DNA of 64,000 nt, from IMG/VR virus record IMGVR_UViG_3300015607_004593, positions 32,001 to 96,000 of that record; one strand, given 5' to 3'. This document shows, in pieces, positions 26,599 through 61,339 of the stretch; position 1 is the first letter of the stretch, and each line of letters opens with the position of its first letter. A program made the translations under genes and the position numbers. The notes beneath the pieces are model-generated. The model was not told the origin of the DNA, did not search any database, and saw only the letters and a list, made by a program, of their open reading frames with translations. The stretch comes from a virus. Taxonomy: Duplodnaviria > Caudoviricetes.

Positions 26599-26758
26599 TT
26601 TGTTTTTCAAGAGTTTTTTAAAAAAATGAAAATTTTGAAAAAAAGAGTACCTAGACTACCACCTCGTAAAAAAACGTAAAAATGACCCTTGTAAGTCTTT
26701 GAATTAAAACAAGAAAAAAATGAAAAAAATTCATTTTTTGACAAACCTAGACTTTTTT
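26599..26758 (+). repeat. dispersed ~160-bp intergenic element, copy A
   Basis: ...aaaatgaaaattttgaaaaaaagagtacctagactaccac...aaaatgacccttgtaagtctttgaattaaaac...caaacctagactttttt. Confidence 0.92.
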
Positions 26759-26814
26759 AAAAACCAAAAAAAGGGTGAGAAGAAATCTCACCCTTTTCAT
26801 ACTTACCTACTTAC

Positions 26815-27207
26815 TTAAATTTCAAAATACTCCCATCTTGACTCCTCATTATTAAAAACATACAAAAATTCACAATTTGCTTTTTGTGCTGACCTCTTTA
26901 ATTCATAGTAAGTATAATATTTCCTAGCTTGAGTGCCCTTATCTCCCCTATCTCTCCCGTAAGCAACCGTGTGTCCTTTCACTGGTGAAGAGAAGGTATG
27001 ACCTTCAGGCTTCTCTATTGAGGGATAAAGTGCTGATAAATCCCCTAAAGCTAGAAGTTCTTTGATTCTTTCTACGTTTGCAAAGGAGCTAGTCAGAGTA
27101 GGAAGCATCGCTTCAGGGTATCCATCCCAGTGGCAATAAATTGACGTGTAATAGTCAGTACCATTGGTTCCGGTCTGCTTAAGAGCAATCATTGAACGTG
27201 TTGCCAT
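26815..27207 (-). CDS. conserved phage early protein (MATRS...YCHWDGYP family)
   Basis: MATRSMIA, IYCHWDGYP, LGDLSAL, AYGRDRGD; AGGAG RBS. Confidence 0.8.
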   Translation of the reverse strand: MATRSMIALKQTGTNGTDYYTSIYCHWDGYPEAMLPTLTSSFANVERIKELLALGDLSALYPSIEKPEGHTFSSPVKGHTVAYGRDRGDKGTQARKYYTYYELKRSAQKANCEFLYVFNNEESRWEYFEI

Positions 27208-27279
27208 TGTAGCAATCTCCTAGAGAGTTTAAAGGTTTGGTTCCTTTTTTAAAACTTCCTTTCCCTAAACTGCAAAAAG

Positions 27280-27308
27280 ATTATAATCTTTTTTTTAAGA
27301 TTGATCAA
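27280..27308 (-). promoter_or_regulatory. sigma70-type early promoter
   Basis: TTGATC-17 bp-TATAAT. Confidence 0.65.
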
Positions 27309-27406
27309 CCTTTTTTTTGAAAAAATAAAAAAAATCCTACCTCGAAAATGTTACACTCCCGAAGTAGGATTTTGAAGATTATTTCTTAAAAATAAAAAGC
27401 ATGTGA

Positions 27407-28287
27407 TTAAGGCTTATCAATAACTCCACGCCCATTGCAATGAGGACAATTAATCAAAGGTCTATTAATAATTCCCATCAATTCATCTAAAAACTCCTGA
27501 ACCTTATTTTTTAAATCTTCAAATGACTTTCCCGTGATAGGTTGTATCACTGGATAGTTTTGATAGGCTTTAGGTGCCATCTTAAAAATTTCAACATCCC
27601 TAGTGTCAATAATGTTGTTATTTACATGACAACCATCATTGTCATTCTTATTAAAACTTGGAATGTGTTTCTTAACAGCAAAACAAAAATCATAATCTGA
27701 AGAAACAAAAGCAACTGATTTATCAATATGAGTTTTGATGTATTCTCTAGTATGATTAAACATCCACAATGAATCAAGAGTAGATGATGTATCTTGTAAC
27801 AAATCAGGATTTGTTATTATTTCATCTATAAGATTATGCTTGATGTTTTGAAAAGGAGCTTTTACAAAATTCCAATCTGTTTCTTTTGTTGCAATACATT
27901 CAATACTAAATTCCTCTTCTTTAAAATTTTCAGGAATGATTTCATAAACAGGCTCATAAAGGTTGAAAAGAGGATGTTCAAAATCATATTCTGTATCATT
28001 TTCATAACACCACTTTTCAAAAAAATCAGATGCTAATGTCTTAAAGGTATAGATTCAGATGGTGTATAATCATCATTCAAAGTATAAGAAATAATAATAC
28101 TTTGTTTAAAAATAATTTATTCTACTTTCTTAGGTATAGAAGATACTTTAACCCAATTATGCTTAAATGTTTCTTCAGGTTGTTGTCCATCAAATAGAAG
28201 ATTACTTAAAGGAATAAATTTAGTATTATTCTTAGAATAAGAAAGAAAAACAGATGAATGGGTATAAATCATATCAAAATAAAGCAT
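27407..28287 (-). pseudogene. disrupted phage gene (in-frame stop plus frameshift)
   Basis: ATG at 28287 (MLYFDMIYTH...), TAA at 28119-28117, frameshift near 28040, then an open frame into the tracked ORF 27407-27802 (SSDYDFCFAVKK...CPHCNGRG). Confidence 0.65.
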
Positions 28288-28493
28288 GAAAAAATTAAAC
28301 CTCTTTGTTTGTTTGCATTAAAAACTTTTTTTCTTACTTTCTTTTAAAAATTTTCTTAATCTTTTTCTTAAAAAGAAAAAAGATAAATCTAGGAAAGTAA
28401 ACGATTAAAAAATAGATAACTACTAAGAAAATTAACCAATCAATAATTATCATAGGGAATTTATAATCCTAAGTTAAGTTAGATAAAATTTTT

Positions 28494-28799
28494 CTACAGG
28501 AAACTATTTTTAGAAATAATAAAATTAATTTTTTCATCTAGTTCTTTTCTTATATCAGGAGGGTAAATATCAACGAATAATTCATGTATAGTACTTTTAA
28601 TCTTTTTTTCAGACCATCCTGCTTTTAAAGCATCTTGAGTAAAATGAACCCATGATATAACAAAATTATATTTTTGCGTAATATCATAAATGACTTGAAG
28701 GGGTAAACCATAAGTATCATAAAGTAAAAAAATATTAGAAATTACATTAAACCCTTCTTTTGTTTTCCCAACTACATCAAAATTAAATTTCTTTTTCAT
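28494..28799 (-). CDS. protein resembling an alanyl-tRNA synthetase helical fragment
   Basis: IFLLYDTYGLPLQVI resembles AlaRS AFxLYDTYGFPxDL; only 101 aa, no catalytic core. Confidence 0.55.
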   Translation of the reverse strand: MKKKFNFDVVGKTKEGFNVISNIFLLYDTYGLPLQVIYDITQKYNFVISWVHFTQDALKAGWSEKKIKSTIHELFVDIYPPDIRKELDEKINFIISKNSFL

Positions 28800-28868
28800 T
28801 TTTTTTCCTTTATAAAAAGAAAAGTCTATACATCTCTAAAAAGAGAATATATAGACCTTTTAAAGAAT

Positions 28869-28943
28869 TGGTAGGCGCGGATGGAATCGAACCATCTTAG
28901 CCGGATTAAAAGTCCGGTACTTCACCGAAAAAGTTTCACGCCC
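28869..28943 (-). tRNA. tRNA-Lys(TTT)
   Basis: GGGCGTG...CCGGA CT TTT AA TCCGG...GGTTCGATTCC...CGCGCCTACCA; encoded CCA. Confidence 0.92.
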
Positions 28944-28948
28944 AAAAT

Positions 28949-29025
28949 TGGCGTCCCAGGAGAGATTTGAACTCCCGACCCACATCTTAGAAGGATGTTG
29001 CTCTATCCAACTGAGCTACTGGGAC
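28949..29025 (-). tRNA. tRNA-Arg(TCT)
   Basis: GTCCCAGTAGCTCAGTTGGATAGAGC, ACATC CT TCT AA GATGT, GTTCAAATC, CCA end. Confidence 0.95.
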
Positions 29026-29054
29026 AATTTTAATTTAAATTATTTATTTCAATT

Positions 29055-29131
29055 TGGTGGCCCTTGTAGGATTTGAACCTACAACCAAAGAATTATGAGT
29101 TCTCTGCTCTAACCACTTGAGCTAAAGGGCC
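29055..29131 (-). tRNA. tRNA with CAT anticodon, most likely tRNA-Ile2 (lysidine, reads AUA)
   Basis: GGCCCTTTAGCTCAAGTGGTTAGAGCA...CTCATAAT...AAGGGCCACCA closely resembles enterobacterial ileX/ileY; paired G1-C72, so not an initiator. Confidence 0.88.
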
Positions 29132-29180
29132 ATTCTTTTTTCATACTGTTTTTGTTCTTACATCAAAACAGTATGAAAAT

Positions 29181-29209
29181 ATTTTAAATCATCCCGATGA
29201 AAAAAGCAA
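29181..29209 (-). promoter_or_regulatory. sigma70-type promoter of the tRNA cluster
   Basis: TTGCTT-17 bp-TAAAAT about 50 nt upstream of the first tRNA. Confidence 0.6.
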
Positions 29210-29238
29210 CCCCTTTTTAAACATTTTTCATTTTCCCC

Positions 29239-29502
29239 TCACTCCACATATTGAGCGCAAATAACCGGCGTTGTTTTTATCTTAGGTGCATTTCCTAGCA
29301 AAATAACTTCCGTTTCATGTGGATAAACCCAAAGATTAATCCACTCAGAATTTTGTTTACAATCTTCCTTTTCACTATAAATTCTAGAGATTGTTGGATG
29401 CGTTTTTCTTGCAACCTCTTCAGATTCAGCAATGACTTTAATAAAAATAAATCCACGTTGTGTGGGATTTTTTCTATTAACTTGCCACAAAAATAAATTC
29501 AC
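29239..29502 (-). CDS. hypothetical protein
   Basis: 87-aa ORF, GTG start with GAGGA RBS. Confidence 0.6.
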   Translation of the reverse strand: MNLFLWQVNRKNPTQRGFIFIKVIAESEEVARKTHPTISRIYSEKEDCKQNSEWINLWVYPHETEVILLGNAPKIKTTPVICAQYVE

Positions 29503-29532
29503 TTTTTTATCCTCTTAAAAAAGAAAAAAAGA

Positions 29533-30210
29533 TTAATCAAAAAGAAAAGAATCTATTTCTTCAGCAATCTCTTTAGGCTTAAGAATAAATTCTATACCTG
29601 TTCCTTTGATTTGAGGAGAAACATTTAAATCAATAGCTAATAGATTTCCAGATGAAGTTTCCTCAACAAAATCTATAGCTAAAAGAGGAAAAGAATTTCT
29701 TTCTTTCATGATTGAAGAAGAAAGGTCAAGGTAATAATGTTCAATTGGATTGAGAATTTGAATATCAACATTATCTCCACAATTTGATCTCCACTTGTCT
29801 GAAGATTGATAAGAAAGCCAAAAAATATGTTGTCCTATAAAAAGTAATCTTATTGAAATAGGAAAATCTCTAGGTTGAATAAACTCGGAAGCAAAGTGAT
29901 GATTAAATTCTTTAATATCATTTTCATTGGGGTAAACAAGTATTTTTCCTTCACCTTGATGAGAAGATTCATTAAGATAAATGACAAGTGGTGTTCCTTC
30001 TGGTAATTCTAATAATAAATCTTTAACTTTTCCAAACCTTGGAGTAAGAATATTTCTTTCTTTAAACCAAGTAAACATCTCACTTCTACTCATTCCACCG
30101 AAAGAGTTTCTTTGAAAGATATTATCTGTCTTTCGTCTCATTGGTCTGATAGAATCAATAAACCAATGGTCATAACAATCTCTAAAATCAGACTCAAGAA
30201 TTGCTCTCAT
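29533..30210 (-). CDS. ATP-grasp-like protein
   Basis: SHQGEGKIL, ASEFI, WRSN, AIDFV...LLAIDLNVSP resemble ATP-grasp motifs. Confidence 0.55.
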   Translation of the reverse strand: MRAILESDFRDCYDHWFIDSIRPMRRKTDNIFQRNSFGGMSRSEMFTWFKERNILTPRFGKVKDLLLELPEGTPLVIYLNESSHQGEGKILVYPNENDIKEFNHHFASEFIQPRDFPISIRLLFIGQHIFWLSYQSSDKWRSNCGDNVDIQILNPIEHYYLDLSSSIMKERNSFPLLAIDFVEETSSGNLLAIDLNVSPQIKGTGIEFILKPKEIAEEIDSFLFD

Positions 30211-30237
30211 TGTAATAGATACTCCTCAAAAAATGAT

Positions 30238-30774
30238 TTAAGAAAACAACAAAGAATAAACTTTAGAAACATCACAAGCATCTACTTCCACAAAAGGAAT
30301 TGAAAACTCAAGCAAAATAGATTTTAATTCTTCATCTATCTTCTTTGCTTCTTCTTCCGTTTGCAATCTTCCACGTTGTTCATATATTTCATCTTTATTT
30401 CTTCTTAAAAAGAAATTAACATTATCAAACTCATGATAAGAAGAAATGATCATTTCTTCTGTTTTTTGTTTATCTGAAACATTATCAGGATAAAATCTAT
30501 TGTAATAGATTCCAAGAGCTATCGGTGAATCTGTAATAATGAAATCTACATGGTCTTTTAGAATAGAAATCTTTGAATATTGTTTCCTAGAAACATAATA
30601 TTGATTCTTTAATGTTTCATAATCCTTTTTCCAAACTAATGTCTTAGCGTATTCAGGAACAAATTCAGCAACATGTCCATTCATTTTTAATTTAGCAAAC
30701 AAAAGACATGAAGTGATGGTTTTTCCTATTCCCGGCCCACCAAAAAAATTAATGACTTTTGTTTTATGAGACAT
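30238..30774 (-). CDS. P-loop kinase/ATPase (NadR/AAA_28-like)
   Basis: INFFGGPGIGKT, EFVPEYAK, IITDSP, GRLQTEEEA. Confidence 0.8.
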   Translation of the reverse strand: MSHKTKVINFFGGPGIGKTITSCLLFAKLKMNGHVAEFVPEYAKTLVWKKDYETLKNQYYVSRKQYSKISILKDHVDFIITDSPIALGIYYNRFYPDNVSDKQKTEEMIISSYHEFDNVNFFLRRNKDEIYEQRGRLQTEEEAKKIDEELKSILLEFSIPFVEVDACDVSKVYSLLFS

Positions 30775-30821
30775 CGAAATTTACTCCTCTTGATAAGTTT
30801 TAGTTGAAGTTAAAAAAGATT

Positions 30822-35438: not shown

Positions 35439-38036
35439 ATGCCTATACAAAACCTTTTTATCTATACTCATGGAATTCAAAAAAATCATTCATCCATAGT
35501 CTTAGATGAAAATATTTCTGAACAAGATGACATTTCATCAGTTCATCTTGAAGGAAATGAATTAGAAATTTTAATTGTTTCTTATTCACAATTCTTTGAG
35601 ATTACTTTGGGAAATAAGATTTCAGAATATACAGAATATTCTGCTTATCTTAGATTTAAAGAACAATACTCTTTATCCTCTATTAATTTTCTTTCACAGA
35701 GAAATAGTTTTTCACTTGTGTGGAAAACATCGGTTAAAACTATTGCATCATCTATTGTTTCAACAAGACAAAATTCACCTATTTCTTGTTTTATTCATTG
35801 TATCTTCTTAGACCAAAGAAATTCTATTGTTTCATCTAAACAGATTTCAACTTTAAGTAATGCTATAAAAACATCTTTTTATGTACCTAAATTAAATTCT
35901 TTTATAAAAACATCCGATTATTCTTCTCTTTTAAATTCTTCTTTATTTACATCCATCTTTGAATCATTTAATCTTGAAACTTTCCTTAGACAAGTTTCTA
36001 ACATCAATGCTTTTCATTCAGCAATTCTTTTAGAAAAATTTAATCTTTTATTTTCTTTTCTTCAAAAAGAAGAAATACTTTCAGGAATTTTTGCAACAAC
36101 ACTTTCTTCTGAACTTTATGGAGACATTAAAAAGAATACAACTATTTCAGAAGAAATAATACTTTCTTATTCTATTTCTGAAATAAATGAATTTTCATCT
36201 TTTATAAATCTATCTCCTAAAGAAAAAATAACAGGTACATTCTTTGGAACAACATTAGAATATTCTTTATTTTGTGATATGGCTGTTTACATTCATTCTT
36301 ATCTTTCTTGTTATATTAATTCATCTATCTATGATATTTTCTCTTCTAAATTTTCTTTCAAACAAAGAAATAATTTTAATCTTTTTATTCTAAAGAAATC
36401 AAGAGATAATATTATCAATTGTACTTCACAAAGATTTGTATTCAAACAAATCTCCTCTTGTTCCATCAATGAAAAGTTTCCTTTATCTCTTTCTTTCTCA
36501 AGAGAGAATCATACTCTTTCTTGTGCTATTCATGCTCTTAATGCTAATGAAATAAATTGCTCTTTTTTGTTTTCAAGAAATTCTCATGATTGTTGGATAA
36601 AGGTTGTACAAGGTTATTCACTTACAGCTATCATTGCTCCAATTGGAAATTTAATCATTTGTTCCTTGAAGGGTCTTTATTATTCATCATTATCATCATC
36701 TTTTGCAAAACAAAATTCAAGGCTTTCTTTAGCATTTCAAGATACAAAATATGCAGCAACTCTATCTGCTTCTTTTCCTCGTTTCAAAGAAAAATTAAAT
36801 TGTACGTTTGGAAATGTTTTTGAAGTTCATTTTAGAAATACAATCATTTCTTCAAGAGGGTTTGGTTTCATTCCTGTTAGATTAAATGCCTTTACAATAA
36901 GAGAACCAAAGAATGCTTTCATTTCTTCAAAAGAAAGATTTAGAATTTCTTCTTCTTTTTATAAAACAAGAGCTAGAAGTGAAATAAATGTTACTTTTGC
37001 TTTTAAACTAGGAATCCTTTCTTGTTCTATTACATCTTCACCATTTTCAATTATTACTCTTTCTTTTGCAAGACAATTATTTTCAATTTCTGCTTTCATT
37101 TCTTGTTTAATACCCTATGAAGTCACATGCTCTTATCCTAAACAGAAAGAAAACATTTCTTGTACATTCGCAAAGGTCATAGAAACTTTTACAAAGACAG
37201 CCTTTATTTCTTCAAGAGGGTTTGGTTTCATTCCTGTTAGATTAGATGCCTTTACAATAAGAGAACCAAAGATTGCTTTCATTTCTTCAAAAGAAAGAAC
37301 AAGATTTTCATCCTTAGCCTTCGTTGATGTAAAACCTCTTTATGATTTTACTGTAACATTTGCATTTGATTTAGAAAAGATAACATTAAATCTATTCTGC
37401 ATAGAAGCAAATTATCTTACTGCTTCTTTTGCAAAACAAATAAAATCACTTTCTTGCTTCATTCATTGTTTAGAAACAAGGCAAATACTTGGTGGGTTTG
37501 TAGGACAAAAATTCAATTGTCTTTGTTTTTGGGAAACAAGATTAAAGTATGAAGTAACTGCAATTGTTCTATCAAAACCTTCTGATGAACTAAAAATAAG
37601 GTGTCCTGTTTCTTTTTCTACTTCTTTTTCTTGTGATTTCTCTTGTACAGAAAGAGAAAGAATATCATGTTTTATGCTTGCTCTTTTTCAAGATTCAATT
37701 TCTTGTGACCTTAAGAAAAAAGCTATAGAAGAAATATCTTCATCTTATTCTTCTACTTCTCTTATCTATCCTTTAGATTCTTATCTAAGAATAAAAGAAA
37801 GACAAGAAATAACATTTTCTTTAGATATGGCTATAAGAGAAATTATTTTTTCAGATATGAGAAAAATTGATTCTTCAGAAATTCCTTTCTTCATTCGTTG
37901 TCCTAAACCTTATAATGTTTTTTATTCAAGAGATTGTAGAATCATTTGTCAAAGACAATATCTGTCAACTTATCCTGAAGAGCAAGTCGTTGAGCTTGAA
38001 TTTCCTGAATATAAAATTTTACAATCGGATTTATAA
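35439..38036 (+). CDS. large Ser/Phe/Cys-rich repetitive protein, probably late/virion
   Basis: 865-aa ORF with recurring short (I/L)SC/xSF motifs and an internal duplication; ATAAATA upstream. Confidence 0.7.
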   Translation: MPIQNLFIYTHGIQKNHSSIVLDENISEQDDISSVHLEGNELEILIVSYSQFFEITLGNKISEYTEYSAYLRFKEQYSLSSINFLSQRNSFSLVWKTSVKTIASSIVSTRQNSPISCFIHCIFLDQRNSIVSSKQISTLSNAIKTSFYVPKLNSFIKTSDYSSLLNSSLFTSIFESFNLETFLRQVSNINAFHSAILLEKFNLLFSFLQKEEILSGIFATTLSSELYGDIKKNTTISEEIILSYSISEINEFSSFINLSPKEKITGTFFGTTLEYSLFCDMAVYIHSYLSCYINSSIYDIFSSKFSFKQRNNFNLFILKKSRDNIINCTSQRFVFKQISSCSINEKFPLSLSFSRENHTLSCAIHALNANEINCSFLFSRNSHDCWIKVVQGYSLTAIIAPIGNLIICSLKGLYYSSLSSSFAKQNSRLSLAFQDTKYAATLSASFPRFKEKLNCTFGNVFEVHFRNTIISSRGFGFIPVRLNAFTIREPKNAFISSKERFRISSSFYKTRARSEINVTFAFKLGILSCSITSSPFSIITLSFARQLFSISAFISCLIPYEVTCSYPKQKENISCTFAKVIETFTKTAFISSRGFGFIPVRLDAFTIREPKIAFISSKERTRFSSLAFVDVKPLYDFTVTFAFDLEKITLNLFCIEANYLTASFAKQIKSLSCFIHCLETRQILGGFVGQKFNCLCFWETRLKYEVTAIVLSKPSDELKIRCPVSFSTSFSCDFSCTERERISCFMLALFQDSISCDLKKKAIEEISSSYSSTSLIYPLDSYLRIKERQEITFSLDMAIREIIFSDMRKIDSSEIPFFIRCPKPYNVFYSRDCRIICQRQYLSTYPEEQVVELEFPEYKILQSDL
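36846..37298 (+). repeat. 93-bp direct repeat, two copies 360 bp apart (36846-36938 and 37206-37298)
   Basis: Identical except two positions; encodes ISSRGFGFIPVRL(N/D)AFTIREPK(N/I)AFISSKER. Confidence 0.95.
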
Positions 38037-38038
38037 TT

Positions 38039-38200
38039 CTTTGTTTTTCAAGAGGTTTTTAAAAAAATGAAAATTTTGAAAAAAAAGAGTACCTAGACTA
38101 CCACCCCTTAAAAAAACGTAAAAATGACCCTTGTAACTCTTTGAATTAAAACAATAAAAAAATGAAAAAAATTCATTTTTTAGCAAACCTAGACTTTTTT
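38039..38200 (+). repeat. dispersed intergenic element, copy B
   Basis: Near-identical to copy A, with gagtacctagactaccac and caaacctagactttttt. Confidence 0.92.
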
Positions 38201-39530: not shown

Positions 39531-39761
39531 CTATTCTTCTTCCTTTTCATCTTCTTTAGTTTCTTGTTTCTTTAAATTATCAGGCAATGTTGAACCTATA
39601 ATACCAATAACCCCAAGAATAATAAAGACAAGGTTTGATGTAAGACTCTCAGAAGGGTTATAACCAAAACAAGATGAAAAGAAAAGAATAAGTGATTTTA
39701 TTGTAGATGTTTCATGAAGTCTATCGAAAGCATAAGTAATAATTTTTGTCCTGATGTCCAT
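39531..39761 (-). CDS. putative holin
   Basis: RLHETSTIKSLILFF...LVFIILGVIGIIGSTLPD: two hydrophobic segments, charged C-terminal tail, RLxExST motif seen in small phage holin-like proteins; AGGAG RBS. Confidence 0.6.
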   Translation of the reverse strand: MDIRTKIITYAFDRLHETSTIKSLILFFSSCFGYNPSESLTSNLVFIILGVIGIIGSTLPDNLKKQETKEDEKEEE

Positions 39762-39807: not shown

Positions 39808-39950
39808 AAAAAATTAAAATTTTAATTTTTTTATCTTTTTAATTCAAAAACTTATAAGGGTAATTTTTACGTTTTTTCTTGATCTGGTAGTCTAGGTACT
39901 CTTTTTTATCAAAATTTTCATATTTTTGAAAACAGGTTAAAAAACAAAAG
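39808..39950 (-). repeat. dispersed intergenic element, copy C (inverted, more diverged, lacks the second ACCTAGAC)
   Basis: Reverse complement reads atgaaaattttgataaaaaagagtacctagactaccag...aaaaaacgtaaaaattacccttataagtttttgaattaaaa. Confidence 0.88.
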
Positions 39951-39985
39951 ATTAAAAATTCACTTTGAAAAAAACATAAACTTAT

Positions 39986-39993
39986 TATAAATA
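39986..39993 (+). promoter_or_regulatory. T4-type late promoter
   Basis: TATAAATA 45 nt upstream of ATG 40038. Confidence 0.65.
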
Positions 39994-40037
39994 AATTTAC
40001 TTATTTTTAAAAAAAAGGATTTATAAGAGAAACTACT

Positions 40038-51415: not shown

Positions 51416-53242
51416 TTAGTATTTTATAAAAACTTTGTTTCCGCAATCCCAAACCCTATCAAAACCATGTTCAATCAAATTTTCCCATGCGCTCTTACTT
51501 TCAATAAAATTCTCTAATATATTTTTTAATTTGTGTTTTTGAAAAACAATCCTAGACTTTAATTGAAGATTGTTTGAAGAAGAAGAATTTCTTTGAAAAT
51601 AATAACTATTTGGTGGAGAATCTTTTTCTTCTTTCATTCCAAGTTGATTTTTATACAAAGAACCTGAAGAAAATCTTTTATCTGCATAAGAAATAATACT
51701 TCCTTTTGGTCTTTTTGAAAACAATTTAGATGCTCCACCGACAACAGAAACACCTTTTTTATTACAAAATCTAAGTAATTCCCAATCTATGTTTTTTCTA
51801 TACCTAGATTGTATAAATGTCATAAGACAAACTAATTCTTCTTCATAATAAAGTCCAAAACAACATTGAGAAGGTGTGTATCCTTGCAAATGATTTTCAT
51901 CTAAAAACTTCTTTTCTTCTTCAGAAGAAGAAATTTCTTTTAAGATAGTTTTTCTTGCACTAATTTTAATACTCTTCTTTAAATGATTTTTAATGATAGA
52001 TGATACAATCTCAAGTTTATTAAGAATTTCTATATCCCAAAAATGTAAAAGTTTTATTCCCTTATTTTCACATCTTTTCAATTTATCTAAATGATAATTT
52101 TTATCTTTTCCTGATAATTCTGAGTGCCAAAAAATTCCATTGATTTCTATAGCTAAATTTAAATGAGGAATAAAAATATCTAATTCTAAGGGGTTGATGA
52201 TAGTTCTATCATTAATTAAAAAGGAAACATCTAAAGATTTTAATATATCAATAACAATTTGATGAGGAGTAGATATAGTACCTAATCCAACTAAATCAGG
52301 TCTAAATTTTTTAGTGTAGATGTTGATTGTAGAAGATACCATAAAAGGTAAAAGTTTAAGTTTCACTTCAGACACTTCAGTAAAATCTTTCCACCAATCA
52401 AATTCAGAAATAGTTGTCAAAATTTCCTTCAAATGTCTTTGAGACGTAGAAGAAACCCCATACTTTTCAAAGTTTGTTTTTCTTATTTTTTCTTTTACTT
52501 CTTCAGATTGGAAAGTATATTCAACTCCATATCTTTCAAGATTTGTTTTTCTTGTATTTTCTTTTATTTCTTCTGACTTAGAAACATTTTCAACCCCATA
52601 TCTTTCAAGATTTGTCTTTCTTATTTTTTCTTTTACCTCTTCAGATTGGAAAGTATATTCAACTCCATATCTTTCAAGATTTGTTTTCTTTCCTTTATTT
52701 CTGACTTCTTCAGATTGAAGAACACATTCAACCCCATACTTTTCAAAGTTTGTTTTTCTTATTTTTTCCTTTATTTGTTCTGACTTAGAAACATTTTCAA
52801 CCCCATACCTTTCAAGATTTGTTTTCTTTCCTTTATTTCTAACTTCTTCAGATTGAAGAGAAAATTCAACCCCTCTTTTCTTTAAATTTGTTGCCTTTTG
52901 CTTTTCCATTACCTCTTTAGATTGTGTAGGAAATTCAACCCCTCTTTTCCTTAGATTTGTTTCTTTTTGTTTCTTTAAAAACTCAGGGGTCTTTGAATGA
53001 TATTCAACCCCATATTTTTCTAATTGTGTTCTTTTTGATTTTTCTTTTTTAGATTCTAGTTTTGCAGGATTTTCTACTCCAAATCTTTTTAAGTTTGTTT
53101 GTTTTCTTTTTTCATTTGCAATGAAAATAAGTTTAGGATTTCTTTTCAAACAATTATTTGAACAGAAAAAACTCTTTAAAATATTAGAGAATATACCTTT
53201 TCCATCAATTTCTGAATTACAAGTTTTACATACTACAGGCAT
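51416..53242 (-). CDS. Hef-like free-standing homing endonuclease with N-terminal Zn finger and KxTNLERYGVE repeats
   Basis: CxxC...FCS..C; about ten 23-aa repeats; ELDIFIPHLNLAIEINGIFWHS (PD-(D/E)xK/Vsr-like); FLDENHLQG, ELLRFC, VVGGASKL, ISYADKR, WDCG. Confidence 0.85.
   Translation of the reverse strand: MPVVCKTCNSEIDGKGIFSNILKSFFCSNNCLKRNPKLIFIANEKRKQTNLKRFGVENPAKLESKKEKSKRTQLEKYGVEYHSKTPEFLKKQKETNLRKRGVEFPTQSKEVMEKQKATNLKKRGVEFSLQSEEVRNKGKKTNLERYGVENVSKSEQIKEKIRKTNFEKYGVECVLQSEEVRNKGKKTNLERYGVEYTFQSEEVKEKIRKTNLERYGVENVSKSEEIKENTRKTNLERYGVEYTFQSEEVKEKIRKTNFEKYGVSSTSQRHLKEILTTISEFDWWKDFTEVSEVKLKLLPFMVSSTINIYTKKFRPDLVGLGTISTPHQIVIDILKSLDVSFLINDRTIINPLELDIFIPHLNLAIEINGIFWHSELSGKDKNYHLDKLKRCENKGIKLLHFWDIEILNKLEIVSSIIKNHLKKSIKISARKTILKEISSSEEEKKFLDENHLQGYTPSQCCFGLYYEEELVCLMTFIQSRYRKNIDWELLRFCNKKGVSVVGGASKLFSKRPKGSIISYADKRFSSGSLYKNQLGMKEEKDSPPNSYYFQRNSSSSNNLQLKSRIVFQKHKLKNILENFIESKSAWENLIEHGFDRVWDCGNKVFIKY
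52457..53110. repeat. 69-bp period tandem repeat array inside the endonuclease gene
   Basis: Recurring tcaaccccatatctttcaagatttgtttt-like units at 69-nt spacing, some units near-identical. Confidence 0.85.
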
Positions 53243-53318: not shown

Positions 53319-54263
53319 ATGAAAACATTACAAGAATTTATTACAGAATCTAAAAAAAGTACAACTGATTTTAAAATGTACAATTACGTTGTTAGAATTC
53401 TTCATACAAAAAGTTATATCATGCGTTTGTTATCTACCAATAACAAATATGATTATTTTTTAGAAATAGTTAAAGACTCTATAAAGCGTTTCTATCCTAA
53501 ATTGAGATTGATTTCAGATGAAGAAAATACATCTTTAGCAAAGAAGAAATACAGTGAATCTATCGAACTCATTAGAACAGATTACCTTAAACCTATAGAC
53601 AAAGCTAAATTTATCACTACCCTTCCTATGACAAAGGAAGGAACTTATTGTATAGGTTATAAAGGAGATAGCATAGCAAACAAACGTTTTTGTTTTCAGC
53701 ATCCAAATATCAAAACAAGAAACGATGATGGGTCAGTTAATGAAGATGCTTATAATTTAAATTATAGAATTTATCCAGAAGTTGTTGAGAATTTAGAACG
53801 TATGTGTTTTTCTTATTTTTGGTGTAAAGATAAATCATTTAAACCAATAATTCAAACTAAAGAAGAAGATATTTTTGACATATGTTATAAGAGCATAATT
53901 TTAAATGAATTGAACCTTAGTAAAAGTTTTAATTTTGTATCTCTGGATGTAATTGAATATTTCTTTCCTTCACTAAGGAAAGCTAGAATTATTTCTATTC
54001 CTGATTCAATATTTGAAGATGGTAAAAAACTTAAATTAACTGCTTTAAATGATAGATTTTATTTTGAATTTCCATCTTTTTTTTATGCTTATAAATTTCA
54101 AAAGAAAATAAATTTGAATAATAAAGATAAGGAAATTGTTTCTGATTATCTAACAAATTATTTTAAAGATATTTTTGAAAAGGATGGTTTTACTTTTAAA
54201 TACAAAGAGACAGAATTCAACATGAGAGAAAATGTAATTTATGTTACATGGGAGATAAGTTAA
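53319..54263 (+). CDS. putative internal head protein, paralog 1 of 3
   Basis: MKTLQEFITE N-terminus; shares LHTKSY, KRFYP, ISDEENT, FQHPNIKTRN.DGSVNEDAYNLN with next two ORFs; CTAAATA at 53271. Confidence 0.8.
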   Translation: MKTLQEFITESKKSTTDFKMYNYVVRILHTKSYIMRLLSTNNKYDYFLEIVKDSIKRFYPKLRLISDEENTSLAKKKYSESIELIRTDYLKPIDKAKFITTLPMTKEGTYCIGYKGDSIANKRFCFQHPNIKTRNDDGSVNEDAYNLNYRIYPEVVENLERMCFSYFWCKDKSFKPIIQTKEEDIFDICYKSIILNELNLSKSFNFVSLDVIEYFFPSLRKARIISIPDSIFEDGKKLKLTALNDRFYFEFPSFFYAYKFQKKINLNNKDKEIVSDYLTNYFKDIFEKDGFTFKYKETEFNMRENVIYVTWEIS

Positions 54264-54265
54264 AA

Positions 54266-55198
54266 ATGAAAAATTTAAAAGAATTTCTTTTAGAAGCTAA
54301 AAAATCTAATTTGGAAATGTTTAAGTATGCAGTAAGAAAGCTTCATACAAAAAGTTATTTTATACCAATGATGAATTCAAAGGATAGATTTGAAATATTT
54401 TTAGAATTAGCTAAAGAGTGTATGAAGCGTTTCTATCCTAATCTAAAACTTATTTCAGACGAAGAAAATACAGCTTTAGCAAAAAAAGCATACAATGAAT
54501 CTACTGAACAAATTAGAAAAGATTATCTTAGACCTTTAAACCAAAATAATTTTATCACTACCTTTCCTATGACAAAGGAAGGAACTTACTCGTTAGGATT
54601 TATTAACAATAATGTTTTTAGATATTTTTGTTTTCAGCATCCAAATATCAAAACAAGAAATCCTGATGGGTCAGTTAATGAAGATGCTTATAATTTAAAT
54701 TTTAAAGTCTATCCTGAAGTTGCTGAGAATTTAGAACGAATTTTCATTTCTTTCTTTTACTTTCGGGATAACGCATTAAAAAAATCAGAACAGATTATAG
54801 AAGAAGATATTTTTGATAAATGTTATCAATTCCAAACCGTATTACCAATATATGCATTGATTCCATTTAATTATTCTGCTGTTCTTTACTTCTTTCCTTT
54901 TATTAAGGATGCCGACTCAATTATTATTCCTGATAAGATAAATTCTTATAATATTATTAAAAATTTTAAATTAGGTTTATTTTTTAAAACTTTTTATCTT
55001 AATTCATATCTTCATTTATTTTATAGATATAAGATAAATATAAGATTGGATGAGAATAATGAAACTATTATTTCTGAACATTTACAGGAACACTTAAAGA
55101 ATCTCTTTGAAAAAAATGGTTTTAAATTTGAGTTTAAAGAAATTCATTTTAATCTAAAAGACAAAAGTGTTCAACTCTCAGCAAAGATAGATATTTAA
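54266..55198 (+). CDS. putative internal head protein, paralog 2 of 3
   Basis: Start moved to ATG 54266 by identity with paralog 3 (MKNLKEFLLEAKK). Confidence 0.8.
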   Translation: MKNLKEFLLEAKKSNLEMFKYAVRKLHTKSYFIPMMNSKDRFEIFLELAKECMKRFYPNLKLISDEENTALAKKAYNESTEQIRKDYLRPLNQNNFITTFPMTKEGTYSLGFINNNVFRYFCFQHPNIKTRNPDGSVNEDAYNLNFKVYPEVAENLERIFISFFYFRDNALKKSEQIIEEDIFDKCYQFQTVLPIYALIPFNYSAVLYFFPFIKDADSIIIPDKINSYNIIKNFKLGLFFKTFYLNSYLHLFYRYKINIRLDENNETIISEHLQEHLKNLFEKNGFKFEFKEIHFNLKDKSVQLSAKIDI

Positions 55199-55200
55199 AA

Positions 55201-56139
55201 ATGAAAAATTTAAAAGAATTTCTTTTAGAAGCTAAAAAATCTAATTTGGAAATGTATAAGTATGTAGTAAGGATGCTTCATACAAAAAGTTATTTTATAC
55301 CAATGATGAATTCAAAGGATGATAGAATTGAAACGTTTTTAGAATTAGTTAAAGACTGTATGAAGAGGTTTTACCCTAATCTAAAACTTATTTCAGACGA
55401 AGAAAATACAGCTTTAGCAAAAAAAGCATATGAACAATCTACTGAACAAATTAGAAAAGATTATCTTAGACCTTTAAACCAAAATAATTTTATCACTACC
55501 TTTCCTATGACAAAGGCTGGAACTTATTCAATAAAAATTAAAACAACAAAAAATAATTATAATTATATTTATTTTCAATATCCAAATATCAAAACAAGAA
55601 ATCCTGATGGGTCAGTTAATGAAGATGCTTATAATTTAAATTTTAGAATTTATCCTGAAGTTGCTGAGAATTTAGAACGTATGTGCATTTCTTTCTTTTG
55701 GTATCAAGATAAACCACTTAGAACGTTATCTTATCTTAAAGAAGAAGATATTTTTGATACATGCTATCAATTTTATATTATGAAGCAAAGCTATGAAATT
55801 GGGAATGTGTTTACTTATTCAGGCATCAAATATTTCTTTCCTTTTATCAAAGATGCTATTTCAATTATTGTTCCTTTGAAAAATCCTAATAATACTATTA
55901 AAAAATTTAAATTAACTTTATTGAATGGTAGTTTTTATCTTAATTCACACTTTAATTTAATTTATAATTACAAAACCAAAATAGAAATGGATGAAAATAA
56001 TAAAACTATTATTTCTGAACATTTACAGGAACACTTAAAGAATCTCTTTGAAAAAAATGGTTTTAAATTTGAGTTTAAAGAAATTCATTTTAATTTTAAT
56101 GTCAAAGCTATTAAAATTTTATTTAAAGTAGAGATTTAA
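55201..56139 (+). CDS. putative internal head protein, paralog 3 of 3
   Basis: MKNLKEFLLEAKK; long blocks identical to paralog 2 at DNA level. Confidence 0.8.
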   Translation: MKNLKEFLLEAKKSNLEMYKYVVRMLHTKSYFIPMMNSKDDRIETFLELVKDCMKRFYPNLKLISDEENTALAKKAYEQSTEQIRKDYLRPLNQNNFITTFPMTKAGTYSIKIKTTKNNYNYIYFQYPNIKTRNPDGSVNEDAYNLNFRIYPEVAENLERMCISFFWYQDKPLRTLSYLKEEDIFDTCYQFYIMKQSYEIGNVFTYSGIKYFFPFIKDAISIIVPLKNPNNTIKKFKLTLLNGSFYLNSHFNLIYNYKTKIEMDENNKTIISEHLQEHLKNLFEKNGFKFEFKEIHFNFNVKAIKILFKVEI

Positions 56140-57043: not shown

Positions 57044-57586
57044 TTAAGAATCTTCAAATTCATCTTCATCATAAGGGAAATCAAAGTCAACATCATCTTC
57101 ATCATCAAACAATGAATGAGGCATAACATCAATGATAGTTGTGTCAATATTGATTTCTCCAAAACAATGGGATAGATTTTTATCTAACGAAAAACGACAA
57201 ATAAATTCATCATCAAAAGCTACAAGTTTTCCTTCTGGTGTATCTACTTCAACTTTTAAATTATTCAAATAATTTTCGTCTGCTGTTTTTTGTAAATCAT
57301 CCCATGATATTATTCCTAAAATTCCTGAAGGGCAATAGTAAATACTCCCTTCATTATCATAATAATGTTCATTTTGACCATATGCTGCTGGAAAAGCATA
57401 AAGTGTGAAATTAAATTTTTTAATTTCACACTCAGAAAATCCGAAAACTAAAGAGACAATTTCCATGAAATCTTCTTCTTCACTGAAGAAATTAATTGGG
57501 TCGCCTATAACATAGCTTCCAGACGGTAATCTAAATTCATTATTGTTAAGCATTGTTAAATCCTCTAAAATAGTCACTTTAACCAC
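57044..57586 (-). CDS. acidic hypothetical protein, paralog of 57647-58129
   Basis: LPSGSYVIGDP, AYG, SGILGI, FGEINIDT, acidic tail. Confidence 0.7.
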   Translation of the reverse strand: MVKVTILEDLTMLNNNEFRLPSGSYVIGDPINFFSEEEDFMEIVSLVFGFSECEIKKFNFTLYAFPAAYGQNEHYYDNEGSIYYCPSGILGIISWDDLQKTADENYLNNLKVEVDTPEGKLVAFDDEFICRFSLDKNLSHCFGEINIDTTIIDVMPHSLFDDEDDVDFDFPYDEDEFEDS

Positions 57587-57646
57587 ATCATCTTCTTCTT
57601 TTTCTCAAATACTTCTTAGAAGAAGATAATGAATATTTCATCAACC

Positions 57647-58129
57647 TTATGAGTTATCTTCTTCATCATCTTCATCATCTTCATAATCATCCTCATACTC
57701 ACGTTCATAAGTATAATCACTGGTAATTGTATCAATACAAATGTTTCCAAATGTATGAGTTGGGTCATTTTCATCATCAAAAATGACCTTAAAATTATCT
57801 TTAAATTCTATCAATCTTCCAAGAAAATTTCTTCTATTTTCAAGAATTTCCTTTATTCTTTCTTCAGATGCAACTTTTCTCACTAAAGAGAATGGCATGA
57901 TTCCAATCAATCCCGAATCTACTCCGTATTCAACATCAAAATCATCATAATAAATCCCATCCCCAAATGAAGTGTTGAAGGCATATACAAATTCACCTTC
58001 AAGCTTTCCTATTCCTTCTTTAAAATTATCTTCACCCAACAACTCTTTCCAGTTTTCATTGGATTTTACACTATAACAAGGGTCGCCAACAACATAATTA
58101 CCAGCACTTAAATAAAATTCTTTCTTCAT
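57647..58129 (-). CDS. acidic early protein (G.Y.VGDPCY...T.FGDG...VDSGLIG family)
   Basis: LSAGNYVVGDPCY, TSFGDG, VDSGLIGI, FGNICIDT. Confidence 0.75.
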   Translation of the reverse strand: MKKEFYLSAGNYVVGDPCYSVKSNENWKELLGEDNFKEGIGKLEGEFVYAFNTSFGDGIYYDDFDVEYGVDSGLIGIMPFSLVRKVASEERIKEILENRRNFLGRLIEFKDNFKVIFDDENDPTHTFGNICIDTITSDYTYEREYEDDYEDDEDDEEDNS

Positions 58130-58204
58130 TTCAAAACACTCTCATTTAAGGAAAAGGAAGGGATTTTGAACGTTCCTTGTTCTTACCTACATTCCATGTA
58201 AACT

Positions 58205-58233
58205 ATTATACATAGTTACTTCACAAAAAACAA
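58205..58233 (-). promoter_or_regulatory. sigma70-type early promoter
   Basis: TTGTTT-17 bp-TATAAT with TG just upstream of the -10 box. Confidence 0.6.
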
Positions 58234-58265
58234 TATACTTTTTACAAAAAATACCTCTTGACTTT

Positions 58266-59222
58266 TTATGTTTTTTGATTTTCTAAAATTTTTAGAATCT
58301 CTGAAAGATTTGCAAAAAACAAATTATTAAATTCACGTTGCCAAGATATGTGCATTTTATATTGCTCACAAGTAATCTCTTTCGGACAACTTGATTTACA
58401 GGTACTATTAATATCTCTAAGAAAATTTATCATAATAAATTTAAACCATTTCCAGTCAGGATATAATTTCAAGAAAGAAGAAACAATATCATCATAATAA
58501 TTAGTTGAAAATATTTTCTTAAGTAATTCTATATTTTTTGGATTAGAACAGGAAAGAATTAAATCTATCTTGACATTAAAATAATTGGTTTCATTCCTTT
58601 TATATGAAGAAAAATAATTTTGATTTTGTGCAATAAAAACTAATTCATTAAAATGATGAGAACCTATTCTTTGAATAATTTCATTAAAGGAAGAAAGTAT
58701 CTCTTCATATTCAGAAATAATTTTTTTATTAGGAAAAAGAAAAATGGTTTTATTTTTTATATGCAACGTATTTTCAATAATAGTATCATCTATTTTATTT
58801 TTAAAATATTCATCTATGACAACAAAATCAAAATTTATTCCTCTAAAATTTTGTAGATTAAATGTTCTAAAAAAGAATGTTGTATTGAATATTTCAAATG
58901 TATCATTACTTTTTTGTATTTGCCCATGAGTAAAAAGTCGTTTTACTCTATCATAGTTTGATTCATTACATTTATTTTTTTCCGTTAGGAAAAGAACATT
59001 TTTTTGCCCACACCTGTTTAAATTTTTAAACACAATATAAAGATATATATTATCTATTGTTGATGATAAATTTATATATTCTTCTTTTGATAGATAAAAA
59101 GAAGATTCATCATTTTCAAGATGAGAAAATAATAACTCAACATCATCAGTTATCTTAAAATTTGGAAAAAGATTATTAATAAGATTTTTGTTTGTATTAT
59201 TTTCAAATATAGTATGAGTCAT
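58266..59222 (-). CDS. hypothetical protein with a Walker B-like motif
   Basis: 318-aa ORF; FRGINFDFVVIDE. Confidence 0.55.
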   Translation of the reverse strand: MTHTIFENNTNKNLINNLFPNFKITDDVELLFSHLENDESSFYLSKEEYINLSSTIDNIYLYIVFKNLNRCGQKNVLFLTEKNKCNESNYDRVKRLFTHGQIQKSNDTFEIFNTTFFFRTFNLQNFRGINFDFVVIDEYFKNKIDDTIIENTLHIKNKTIFLFPNKKIISEYEEILSSFNEIIQRIGSHHFNELVFIAQNQNYFSSYKRNETNYFNVKIDLILSCSNPKNIELLKKIFSTNYYDDIVSSFLKLYPDWKWFKFIMINFLRDINSTCKSSCPKEITCEQYKMHISWQREFNNLFFANLSEILKILENQKT

Positions 59223-59426
59223 AAAATAACCTTAAGGAAAAAAGAAAAAATGAAAAAAAATCTTTCCTTAGAAGAAAAGATTTTGTTTATTGAGGATGCT
59301 TCTTATGAAGCACTTTTAGAGATTGCTAAAGAAGATGAAATGGGTTCATTTTTCTCCGAAGAAATTTCAACAAATGCCTTCATTAAAAAAATGAAGGCAT
59401 TTAGAACTATTCAGGAAATGAATTAA
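59214..59426 (+). CDS. hypothetical protein (likely start near 59250)
   Basis: TAAGGA RBS before MKKNLSLEEKILF. Confidence 0.5.
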   Translation: MSHKITLRKKEKMKKNLSLEEKILFIEDASYEALLEIAKEDEMGSFFSEEISTNAFIKKMKAFRTIQEMN

Positions 59427-59431
59427 AAGGC

Positions 59432-59902
59432 TTAGAAGAAATAGGCTTGACAATCAATATTACATTCTAAGAATGATATATCAGAAATATATGTTTCTGT
59501 GAATCTATTGATAGATTCACGTTTGAACTCTTGTACCTGCTTACTGACTTCAAAGAGAACAGAATCAGAAAACTTTACTCCATAGTACGGACTATTATTT
59601 CTCATATCCATTGATATTCTCAGAAGAGATAACCAAGTGATATAGGAATGATTTAGATAACTAATATGTCCTCTTACAGAAAGAGGATTTGCAATTAATC
59701 TCTTCATTGCAAGTTCATTTCCCTTTTTCTTTGTAAACACACTATCAGATTTATTGAATACGGCATATCCAACAGTGATGATACCTGTATCTTTACATAC
59801 ATGTTTAGCAAGGGTTAGCTTAAATCCACTTTCACCCAAAGTAATGTGTTGATATTTGATTTTTTCACATTCATACCGTGAAATACTTTTCTCAGTTTTC
59901 AT
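59432..59902 (-). CDS. hypothetical phage protein
   Basis: 156-aa ORF; GYA....D.F.KKKG..LA..RL motif. Confidence 0.65.
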   Translation of the reverse strand: MKTEKSISRYECEKIKYQHITLGESGFKLTLAKHVCKDTGIITVGYAVFNKSDSVFTKKKGNELAMKRLIANPLSVRGHISYLNHSYITWLSLLRISMDMRNNSPYYGVKFSDSVLFEVSKQVQEFKRESINRFTETYISDISFLECNIDCQAYFF

Positions 59903-59941
59903 CTTTTCTCACTCTCTCGTTTGCTTGAAGTAAAGGAGTTA

Positions 59942-60166
59942 TTATTGCCGTAAGAATTTTTCAACAAATTCTTTATAAGAAGATTTAAGATTACCAATAG
60001 CATAAGATATATCTGAAAGAGCATGGATATAAACAATATCACTAAATTCTTTACTTTCGAGTAGGTTAGTTTCAGGATTTAAAAATTGAAAAGTTTTTGT
60101 TCCCGTTACTTTGTAGGAGCCGTTGGTTTGTTGGGAAACAGAGTAATTCAATTCTTCGTTAATCAT
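59942..60166 (-). CDS. hypothetical protein
   Basis: 74-aa ORF, GGAG RBS. Confidence 0.6.
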   Translation of the reverse strand: MINEELNYSVSQQTNGSYKVTGTKTFQFLNPETNLLESKEFSDIVYIHALSDISYAIGNLKSSYKEFVEKFLRQ

Positions 60167-60205
60167 GTTTCATCTCCAAAAATGAAAAAAAGTTGTGAGT
60201 TTAAA

Positions 60206-60520
60206 TTACTTAACCCCTGAAAGCCTTGCGACTCTCTGAGAAAAATATGTTTGTAGCACACAATCAACAAAAGGCAGGGATAATAGCTCTTCAGAGAGTG
60301 GTGAATCTACACTCGAATAAGGTAAAATCCAATCAACTAATTCCCTATCATCTTCGTACCTTTCTGCTTTCCGAAAAAATTTATAAGTTTTATCAGGAAC
60401 AAGTTTTAGTTTTGCTACATCAGGCAAACTTCTAAAATACGAAGTTCGATTAGCAATAAATCCATCTTGTTGTAATTTACTCAGCAATAAAAAGTTATCA
60501 CCATTGACTTTCAACAACAT
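60206..60520 (-). CDS. hypothetical early protein
   Basis: 104-aa ORF, GAGGAG RBS, TTGCTT-17-TAAAAT promoter at 60602-60574. Confidence 0.65.
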   Translation of the reverse strand: MLLKVNGDNFLLLSKLQQDGFIANRTSYFRSLPDVAKLKLVPDKTYKFFRKAERYEDDRELVDWILPYSSVDSPLSEELLSLPFVDCVLQTYFSQRVARLSGVK

Positions 60521-60626
60521 TATAGCGTCTCCTCTTCAACAACGGTATGAACATAATTTGAATTTACAAATTCATTTTACTGTTTTTAACAATAAAAAGC
60601 AACAACAAAAAAGGGAAATTTTATTT

Positions 60627-60914
60627 TTAGAGCAACCCGGAATCAAGGCACCCGGTACATTTTAACCGATGTTCCAAGGCTTCCATGGACGCATAAAGAA
60701 GAAAAAAAGACTGAGGAAGGGATTGCATAGATGAATGAAAATCTCTTTCACCGTAAAATGAGGGACAACAGATTCTTTCACCACAGTATTCATATCTAAA
60801 ATCATGTTGACGGGGGAATGAATGACTAAAATAAGATGTATTCGGTTTTAATGAAAAATTCTTTTTATTTAATTTTTCTTTGAAAACTATTTCTAATGTC
60901 ATGATAAACAACAT
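60627..60914 (-). CDS. hypothetical protein
   Basis: 95-aa ORF. Confidence 0.45.
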   Translation of the reverse strand: MLFIMTLEIVFKEKLNKKNFSLKPNTSYFSHSFPRQHDFRYEYCGERICCPSFYGERDFHSSMQSLPQSFFLLYASMEALEHRLKCTGCLDSGLL

Positions 60915-60945
60915 CCTTGTTGTTTTTTATAAAAGGATAAAATCT

Positions 60946-61140
60946 TTAAGTGAAATTTAAAATCCTTTCTTCTAAAATATCTGAATAAGCTTTCATCAAA
61001 TCTCTTTGTTTTTCTAAACGTTGTTGTTCTAAAGAATCAAGTCCCTTAAAGATGTTTGAAGAATCTATGAAAGTGATTAGAGCCTTTAATTTTACATCTA
61101 ATTCAGTTTTTTCTGTCTTTACTCTTTCTTGAAAATCCAT
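60946..61140 (-). CDS. small coiled-coil phage protein (crAss001_48-related type)
   Basis: QERVKTEKTEL..KL..L..FI....F..L...EQ.RL..Q...M.AY..IL.ERI..F pattern; GAGGT RBS. Confidence 0.7.
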   Translation of the reverse strand: MDFQERVKTEKTELDVKLKALITFIDSSNIFKGLDSLEQQRLEKQRDLMKAYSDILEERILNFT

Positions 61141-61184
61141 AACGATACCTCTTTTTTTATTTTAATGTTTTATTTATTTTTTAT

Positions 61185-61339
61185 TTTTTTCAATGACTTA
61201 AAAAAATGAAAATTTTTAAAAAAAAGAGTACCTAAGATACCCCTAAGAAAAAATTAAGGAAAATGACCCCTATAAGTCTTTGAATTAAAACAAGAAAAAA
61301 ATTAAAAAAATTAATTTTTTAGCAAACCTAGACTTTTTT
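61185..61339 (+). repeat. dispersed intergenic element, copy D
   Basis: aaaatgaaaatttttaaaaaaaagagtacctaagatacc...aaatgacccctataagtctttgaattaaaacaagaaaaaa...agcaaacctagactttttt. Confidence 0.9.

Follow-up and report, generated by a model that had tools for sequence, protein, structure and literature searches.

The genome of a distant T4-type myovirus, available as IMG/VR virus record IMGVR_UViG_3300015607_004593 (221,970 bp, GC 28.6%, CheckV 100%), carries a 161-bp intergenic element in ten dispersed copies, four of which lie in the window analysed here, a 64,000-nucleotide stretch that corresponds to bases 32001-96000 of the record. From the sequence anatomy of this one genome we tentatively read the element, with a little less than even confidence, as a cis-acting curved protein-binding platform that would have been spread and homogenised by homologous recombination. 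The evidence for this reading lies in the constraint on length and spacing, the phasing of A/T tracts, the orientation-free placement of the copies and the absence of transcription or RNA signals. Exchange of sequence among the copies is better supported than the function of the element.

Ten copies of the element in one genome

Searches with BLAST and with a profile hidden Markov model built from the copies recovered exactly ten copies in the genome (E 5e-29 to 7e-51), so the family exceeds the four, A to D, that the original prediction had reported. Those four, three on the plus strand and one on the minus strand, were confirmed at their reported positions by reading the intervals and by a repeat finder, which groups them as family D5 plus inverted pairs I1-I3. 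There are no decayed relics of the element in the genome, because the next profile match after the ten copies reaches only E 0.11. The copies are as follows.

Genome 17224-17390, plus strand: c1
Window 26599..26758, genome 58597-58760, plus strand: c2 (copy A), full 160-bp core
Window 38040..38200, genome 70040-70201, plus strand: c3 (copy B), full 161-bp core, beginning 4 nt past the stop of an 865-amino-acid (aa) gene
Window 39808..39948, genome 71808-71960, minus strand: c4 (copy C), without the AT hairpin, box 2 and the final ~18 bp
Window 61178..61339, genome 93178-93340, plus strand: c5 (copy D), divergent full copy, 72-80% identical to the others
Genome 118718-118889, plus strand: c6
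Genome 151344-151503, minus strand: c7, interrupted by 19 N in the record
Genome 175883-176049, minus strand: c8
Genome 195005-195177, plus strand: c9
Genome 201374-201533, minus strand: c10

The copies are spaced 2-41 kb apart (~22 kb on average), and pairwise identity across the ten ranges from 72 to 96%, with seven copies 87-96% identical to one another and copies C and D at 72-82%. The 3' end of copy C is replaced by the ribosome-binding site and start of a 76-aa gene (39531-39761, minus strand), while 6 nt separate the 3' end of copy D from the primase gene's stop. The 19 N inside c7 are probably an assembly or scaffolding gap due to the ten-copy repeat itself.

Two direct boxes at invariant spacing

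The aligned core of 161 bp runs from TTTGTTTTT to ACCTAGACTTTTTT, and eight of the nine full copies measure 160-161 bp. Conserved blocks alternate with variable linkers of fixed length, and one box, ACCTAGACT, is present twice as a direct repeat, 95 bp apart, the second box being absent from copy C. From the 5' side, the order is a T-tract, a 12-nt variable block that exists in several discrete versions, AAAAAAATGAAAATTTTG-A8 and GAGTACCTAGACTACC (box 1); then a 7-nt variable block, A7CGTAAAAATGACCC, a 3-nt variable block and TAA-NNNN-TTGAATTAAAAC; and finally two A7 tracts and TTCATTTTTT, followed by AGCAAACCTAGACTTTTTT (box 2). This is the shared layout of A-tracts, boxes and central blocks described from the window copies, and the 13-mer TAA(GTCT/CTCT/GTTT)TTGAAT is present in it. 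Within the window the parts are placed as follows.

26648..26657, plus strand: box 1 (TACCTAGACT) of copy A; equivalents at 38090-38099 (plus) and 39889-39898 (minus)
61229-61238, plus strand: box 1 of copy D, degenerate TACCTAAGAT
26679..26704, plus strand: central block AAAATGACCC-N3-TAAGTCTTTGAAT of copy A, including an IHF-like 13-mer with one mismatch; equivalents at 38121-38146 (plus), 39842-39867 (minus) and 61260-61285 (plus)
26714..26739, plus strand: in copy A, inverted repeat of A/T alone (AAAAAAATGAA / TTCATTTTTT), with phased A-tract cluster 3; counterparts at 38156-38181 and 61295-61320
26744..26758, plus strand: box 2 (AACCTAGACTTTTTT) of copy A; equivalents at 38186-38200 (plus) and 61325-61339 (plus), absent in copy C

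The distances from box 1 to AAAATKACCC, from there to TTTGAATT and on to box 2 are 31, 19 and 46 nt, and they are invariant even in the divergent copy D. Across the family, at least 66 substitution events contrast with only two 1-nt indels, although the DNA consists largely of homopolymer runs. Because the 95-bp spacing amounts to about nine helical turns, the two boxes are expected on the same face of the helix. The two halves of the element (AAAAWWTT.A-N6-AG..ACCTAGACT) look like an old internal duplication.

The box does not behave as a free-standing motif, because its core CCTAGAC occurs outside the elements only at the chance count (6 occurrences against 8.4 expected from composition), always within coding sequence; CTAGACT occurs once outside them. 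The tetranucleotide CTAG is itself strongly avoided genome-wide (207 observed against 575 expected from composition), and its 16 occurrences inside the ten elements make it ~11-fold denser there than in the rest of the genome.

A/T-tract phasing and predicted curvature

Within the element, A/T tracts are phased at 9.3-9.5 bp (about 9.4) in three clusters. We scanned AAA/TTT periodicity in 11,091 overlapping 160-bp windows of the genome, and the top ~20 were all element windows, with a power of 3.5-4.5; non-element windows averaged 0.39, and their 99.9th percentile was 2.21. No other intergenic window (of 103) and no shuffle (of 1000) came up to the level of the elements. Phasing that is the strongest in the genome supports the earlier proposal of a bent DNA-level site, the bending being predicted from sequence.

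Bent DNA is also a feature of iteron-type origins such as lambda ori, pSC101 and SPP1 oriL/oriR, and several origins per genome are in use in T4-type phages; SPP1 carries its origin boxes in two copies. The element resembles such origins in its direct, same-face repeats of a short box, its predicted curvature and the central IHF-like or bendable block as a possible bending-protein site between the boxes, and its copies are dispersed, some of them adjoining replication genes (gp46, primase). That the copies are multiple identical sites for the initiation of replication or recombination, whether as iteron-type origins or for helicase or clamp loading, nevertheless strikes us as distinctly unlikely. 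T4 origins require a promoter for the R-loop primer, and none is conserved in the element, which has only two boxes, no adjacent initiator gene and no distinct AT-rich unwinding region (AT content 74-82% versus 76% in other intergenic DNA). We know of no precedent for ten identical origins.

Placement and orientation relative to genes

All ten copies are intergenic. Four lie antisense between co-directional minus-strand genes (c1, c2, c5 and c9), one lies sense between plus-strand genes (c3), two sit between divergent gene starts (c4 and c8) and three between convergent gene ends (c6, c7 and c10), and only c3, c4 and c8 point at a gene start. Orientation is thus independent of flanking transcription over the whole family, as it had seemed from the four window copies. 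Strand switches hold five of the ten copies, against ~18% of junctions (binomial p ~0.02). Copies often lie 0-40 nt from a stop codon, and most left flanks terminate in TAA(C/T/G/A).

The neighbours mix core and accessory genes. They include gp46 and an endolysin, the primase and a 64-aa gene, the end of the tail-tube gene, an exonuclease opposite Hsp20, a terminase N-fragment next to an 82-aa gene, and the end of an ADP-ribosyltransferase-like gene. At c9, the 5' end of the element provides AAGGG and the ATG of the 82-aa open reading frame (ORF). The 865-aa gene that ends just before copy B (35439-38036) has an internal duplication at 36846-37312, with 360-bp spacing and 107 bp at 93% identity, and gave no Pfam or PHROG match.

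Canonical GC-stem terminators adjoin c2, c6, c7 and c10 as separate features, and since one such terminator stands beside copy A, the element itself is not the terminator. The signals found at the edges of window copies are listed below; the stretch at 39984-40011 may be a compact divergent early/late promoter pair.

26768..26798, minus strand: GC-stem terminator belonging to the minus-strand gene upstream, immediately beyond copy A
39984..40011, minus strand: sigma-70-like TTTAAA-16-TATAAT immediately beyond copy C's 5' end, directed through copy C to the 76-aa gene
39986-39993, plus strand: late-promoter motif TATAAATA for a 188-aa gene, overlapping the sigma-70-like site on the opposite strand

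Mosaic copies, ragged ends and improbable transposition

The family has 17 informative sites; of the 136 pairs that these form, 61 contain all four gametes, and the copies are therefore mosaics. This mosaicism indicates probable gene conversion via the phage's own recombination system, UvsX being present. The copies have ragged ends, with ~15 additional 3' nt common to c1 and c2 and further 5' nt common to c6 and c9. There is no complementarity between the 5' end TTTGTTTTT and the 3' end ACCTAGACTTTTTT, and no flanking duplication.

These properties bear on the suggestion, made in the original prediction, of a non-autonomous mobile element, which would here be of the MITE kind (miniature transposable elements with inverted repeats) or PATE-like, and moved by a transposase in trans. 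Dispersed copies in both orientations, a sharp drop-off in similarity, the lack of relics and the frequent position close to a stop codon, after left flanks in TAA(C/T/G/A), would all suit such an element. Terminal inverted repeats, target-site duplications and precise ends are nonetheless missing. The genome holds no member of the Y1 (PF01797), serine (PF00239) or tyrosine (PF00589) recombinase families, DDE families lying outside that search, and no GIY-YIG enzyme (PF01541), which extends to the whole genome the earlier remark that no cognate recombinase is visible in the window. The element is also absent from the prokaryote, virus and metagenome sets searched. We therefore consider transposition an improbable source of the family.

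Those sets comprised INPHARED, where the element had no match; IMG/VR, where a pattern scan gave only chance 16-25-mers; JGI metagenome contigs, with three chance matches only; and GTDB, where the two-block pattern is absent from 185,579 prokaryote genomes, a result that led us to reject a host-derived repeat. The closest phage contigs found (48-70% amino-acid identity) are without the element, as are 30 distant T4-like loci. A 164-bp repeat in contig L046, considered as a possible relative, proved to consist of coding paralogues.

A repeat that is lineage-specific and mosaic might also be a functionless by-product of ectopic recombination that intergenic DNA tolerates and gene conversion keeps uniform, and the modest enrichment at strand-switch junctions, which tolerate insertions, would be in keeping with this. 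The extreme A-tract phasing and invariant spacing speak against it, as does the lack of truncated relics other than the 3' end of copy C. Direct 160-bp repeats should, moreover, cost a highly recombining phage through deletions. We regard an absence of function as being about as improbable as transposition.

One locus allowed a comparison of synteny at an element site. Contig L033 is collinear with the c1 region save for the slot between gp46 and a 196/204-aa gene. The slot here (genome 16736-17390) holds the element and a T4-lysozyme-type endolysin, whereas in L033 (9680-10941) it holds, 8 nt after gp46, an SLT-like 161-aa gene and a 225-aa gene, without the element. The slot downstream of gp46 looks like the site of a functional lysis-cassette replacement, and the difference between c1 and L033, a single case, matches what cassette exchange in the style of the PeSL (promoter-early stem-loop) elements of other T4-type phages would leave.

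Absence of conserved transcription, RNA and coding signals

The view that the element is not a promoter or leader RNA held over all ten copies, in which neither a promoter nor an RNA fold nor an ORF is conserved. Regions upstream of phage genes are enriched for the late promoter of T4 type, NTAAATA(A), and for TATAAT-type sigma-70 sites, yet NTAAATA is absent inside the element. The best sigma-70 candidate conserved in most copies scores 8/12, with a -35 that falls in one of the variable linkers; only in copy C is 9/12 reached. No MotA gene for middle promoters was found in the genome, which has only one sigma-like gene. A Bacteroidota-type TAnnTTTG, noticed by eye on the reverse strand of box 2, is not accompanied by a conserved TTTG at -33, and the promoters of this genome are of the TATAAT type. 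A terminator was rejected as well, the hairpins of the element being A/T-only and real GC-stem terminators standing alongside. A small ORF fared no better, ATG-led frames shifting with A7/A8 and two copies being without a reverse-strand ATG.

A rival reading makes the element a PeSL-type regulatory cassette, a composite terminator/promoter unit that controls neighbouring genes and is spread by recombination, as in T4, RB49/phi1 and KVP40/nt-1. The phage is T4-type, the element keeps strictly to intergenic DNA, its ends are ragged and its copies mosaic, c1 occupies the sole slot where synteny with L033 breaks, copies B and C bracket a three-gene segment, and NTAAATA late-promoter-like motifs stand immediately beyond the 5' side of c2, c4 and c5. 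Set against these are the missing sigma-70 promoter, internal NTAAATA and MotA, the lack of a GC stem-loop in an element that has canonical terminators separately beside several copies, and an orientation untied to genes, with three copies at convergent ends. PeSLs are, in addition, roughly 70 bp long, and the element is about twice that length. A cassette of this type is unlikely, though the likeliest of the rivals considered.

At the RNA level, folding energy resembled that of dinucleotide shuffles on both strands (z -0.98 and +0.43), none of the 18 pairs predicted by an alignment fold was compensatory, so that there is no covariation, and no Rfam match was found even at E<=1. A multicopy small RNA gene, or a conserved untranslated-region module acting as RNA, would account for high conservation combined with independent orientation, as expected of a self-contained gene. 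The bidirectional terminators beside c2, c6, c7 and c10 might end a short transcript, and at c9 the element supplies the AAGGG and start codon of a downstream ORF. Against the failure of the structural tests, the lack of a conserved promoter or own terminator and the shifting ATG frames, we judge this the least probable of the explanations considered.

The original prediction had also described IHF-box-like arms. Matches with one mismatch to the IHF consensus WATCAANNNNTTR occur by chance ~0.7-0.9 times per 165 bp (0.66 for the whole genome, 0.89 for intergenic DNA), so the IHF-box reading is weak and unsupported, with no independent backing from phage or element. Three one-mismatch 13-mers per copy are indeed conserved across the further copies, but none is exact. 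Likewise, the additional inverted box in copy D, TTTCAATGACTTA, is present and one mismatch from the consensus, but such matches occur at chance density. One point speaks for IHF: where the central 13-mer varies, it does so at the N positions of the consensus. The phage genome contains no HU/IHF gene.

A candidate protein-binding platform

Under the platform reading, three A/T-tract clusters phased at ~9.4 bp would form an intrinsically curved scaffold of 161 bp, presenting two direct GC-containing boxes (ACCTAGACT) that flank the conserved central block AAAATGACCC...TTTGAATT. A phage or host protein that binds DNA sequence-specifically would occupy the boxes, and the curved A-tract DNA would let the protein-DNA complex wrap or loop. 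The result would be ten identical nucleoprotein sites around the chromosome, serving either as architectural or boundary sites or as loading points for replication or recombination proteins. The copies swap sequence by homologous recombination and so stay alike and, as a side-effect, would act as 160-bp portable homologies that mediate cassette exchange and inversions, like PeSLs in other T4-type phages.

Several points weigh against the platform. No binding protein for the boxes was identified. Gene conversion alone could account for much of the identity and the scarcity of indels, the ten copies are non-independent samples for the periodicity statistic, and conservation across species cannot be drawn on because no relative searched carries the element. 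There is no special unwinding signal, since AT content is not above the intergenic background, and because 9.4-bp phasing is off the 10.5-bp helical repeat, the tracts would describe a superhelical path rather than a planar bend. In favour of the platform, the phage has a weak H-NS-like gene (window 6348-6995, minus strand), whose C-terminus matches PF00816 at 20.3 bits, below the cut-off. This gene contains 12-bp tandem repeats at window 6718-6883.

A more specific proposal, which we hold to be unlikely at about the level of the PeSL cassette, is that the ten elements are chromosome-organising sites, defining ~ten domains, with the H-NS-like or another factor bound to the paired boxes on pre-curved DNA, or loading sites for replication, clamp or recombination machinery. 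One example of the loading variant would have the sliding clamp, as the activator of T4-type late transcription, enter the DNA at these fixed points. If true, such sites would be the viral counterpart of bacterial REP/BIME or matS-like systems, of which we know no description for T4-type phages.

Source genome and other features

The phage was identified as a distant T4-type myovirus through Pfam and PHROG matches across its genome. The T4-type genes found on this basis are a split family-B polymerase gp43, the gp44 clamp loader, a gp41-like helicase, UvsX with an intein, gp46, the gp61 primase and a gp55-like sigma factor. Its polymerase shares only 40% identity with the nearest isolates, cyanomyoviruses. 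Phage DNA is present in 18 wastewater or activated-sludge sequencing runs from 8 studies, with no RNA run listed among them.

Essential genes, those for terminase, polymerase and gp46, are already split and scattered in this genome. Within the window, a tRNA cluster (Lys-TTT, Arg-TCT, Met-CAT) occupies 28869-29131 on the minus strand. A 608-aa gene (51416-53242, minus strand), homing-endonuclease-like by its matches (PHROG 3339/559 HNH, Pfam DUF7487), contains at least 8 tandem 69-bp (23-aa) repeats at 52385-53114, an array that could be a DNA-reading domain. Beyond it, at 53319-56139, lie three tandem paralogues of 314, 316 and 312 aa, which repeat with a period of ~940 bp and are 64-83% identical as DNA; a 274-aa gene comes next.

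Discussion

Dispersed intergenic repeats in T4-type phages are, to our knowledge, known only as PeSL cassettes or Campylobacter-phage arrays. The element described here is not a member of the PeSL, Campylobacter-repeat, MITE, REP/BIME or structured-RNA families, because the defining features of each fail in it, and we suggest that it functions most like PeSLs and the repeats of Campylobacter group II phages, as recombination-prone intergenic homology.

A PeSL consists of a stem-loop, a sigma-70-like (or Mot-box) promoter and a Shine-Dalgarno sequence with start codon, and is always co-oriented with its downstream gene (Arbiol et al. 2010, PMC2839356; Comeau et al. 2014, PMC4122927). The likeness to PeSL and PmSL elements is that of a repeated, conserved intergenic sequence in T4-type genomes, with slightly different copies and no transposase, that offers portable homology beside swapped or accessory genes (PMC2839356, PMC4122927). 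The present element differs from PeSLs in having no internal sigma-70 promoter, no stem-loop terminator and no co-orientation ending at a Shine-Dalgarno sequence and start. It is instead a 161-bp unit dominated by phased A-tracts and two direct boxes, found in any orientation, including at convergent ends.

Group II phages of Campylobacter (CP21/CP220) carry 72-86-bp units arrayed at four sites, with as many as 18 in each arm, and single units also elsewhere; the repeats have a 13-bp core, are both direct and inverted, separate modules and are credited with driving inversions and the shuffling of modules, and the genomes also carry transposases and homing endonucleases (Hammerl et al. 2015, PMC4546147). 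Common to both cases are low-GC, T4-related phages and non-coding, recombination-prone repeats in both orientations, whereas here single 161-bp units stand at ten sites without arrays. Sequence similarity to these repeats was not seen, in the sense that INPHARED gave no match, the phages not having been aligned directly.

Bacterial REP/BIME sequences, including the IHF-containing RIP/RIB, are dispersed extragenic repeats, some of which bind IHF or gyrase (PMC3333891). The element is like them in its frequent placement after gene ends and between convergent genes. REPs, in contrast, are GC-rich palindromes mobilised by RAYT Y1 transposases, and the element has only A/T hairpins and no RAYT.

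What appears new is the anatomy: phased A-tracts, two same-face boxes and rigid spacing, with no transcription signals. At the least, the ten 160-bp homologies are places where this genome is likely to break and rejoin in inversions and cassette swaps. If the element is a protein-binding platform, a large lytic phage would mark its own chromosome with a repeated architectural or loading site, and the element would offer a handle on the organisation, replication and rearrangement of 200-kb phage genomes.

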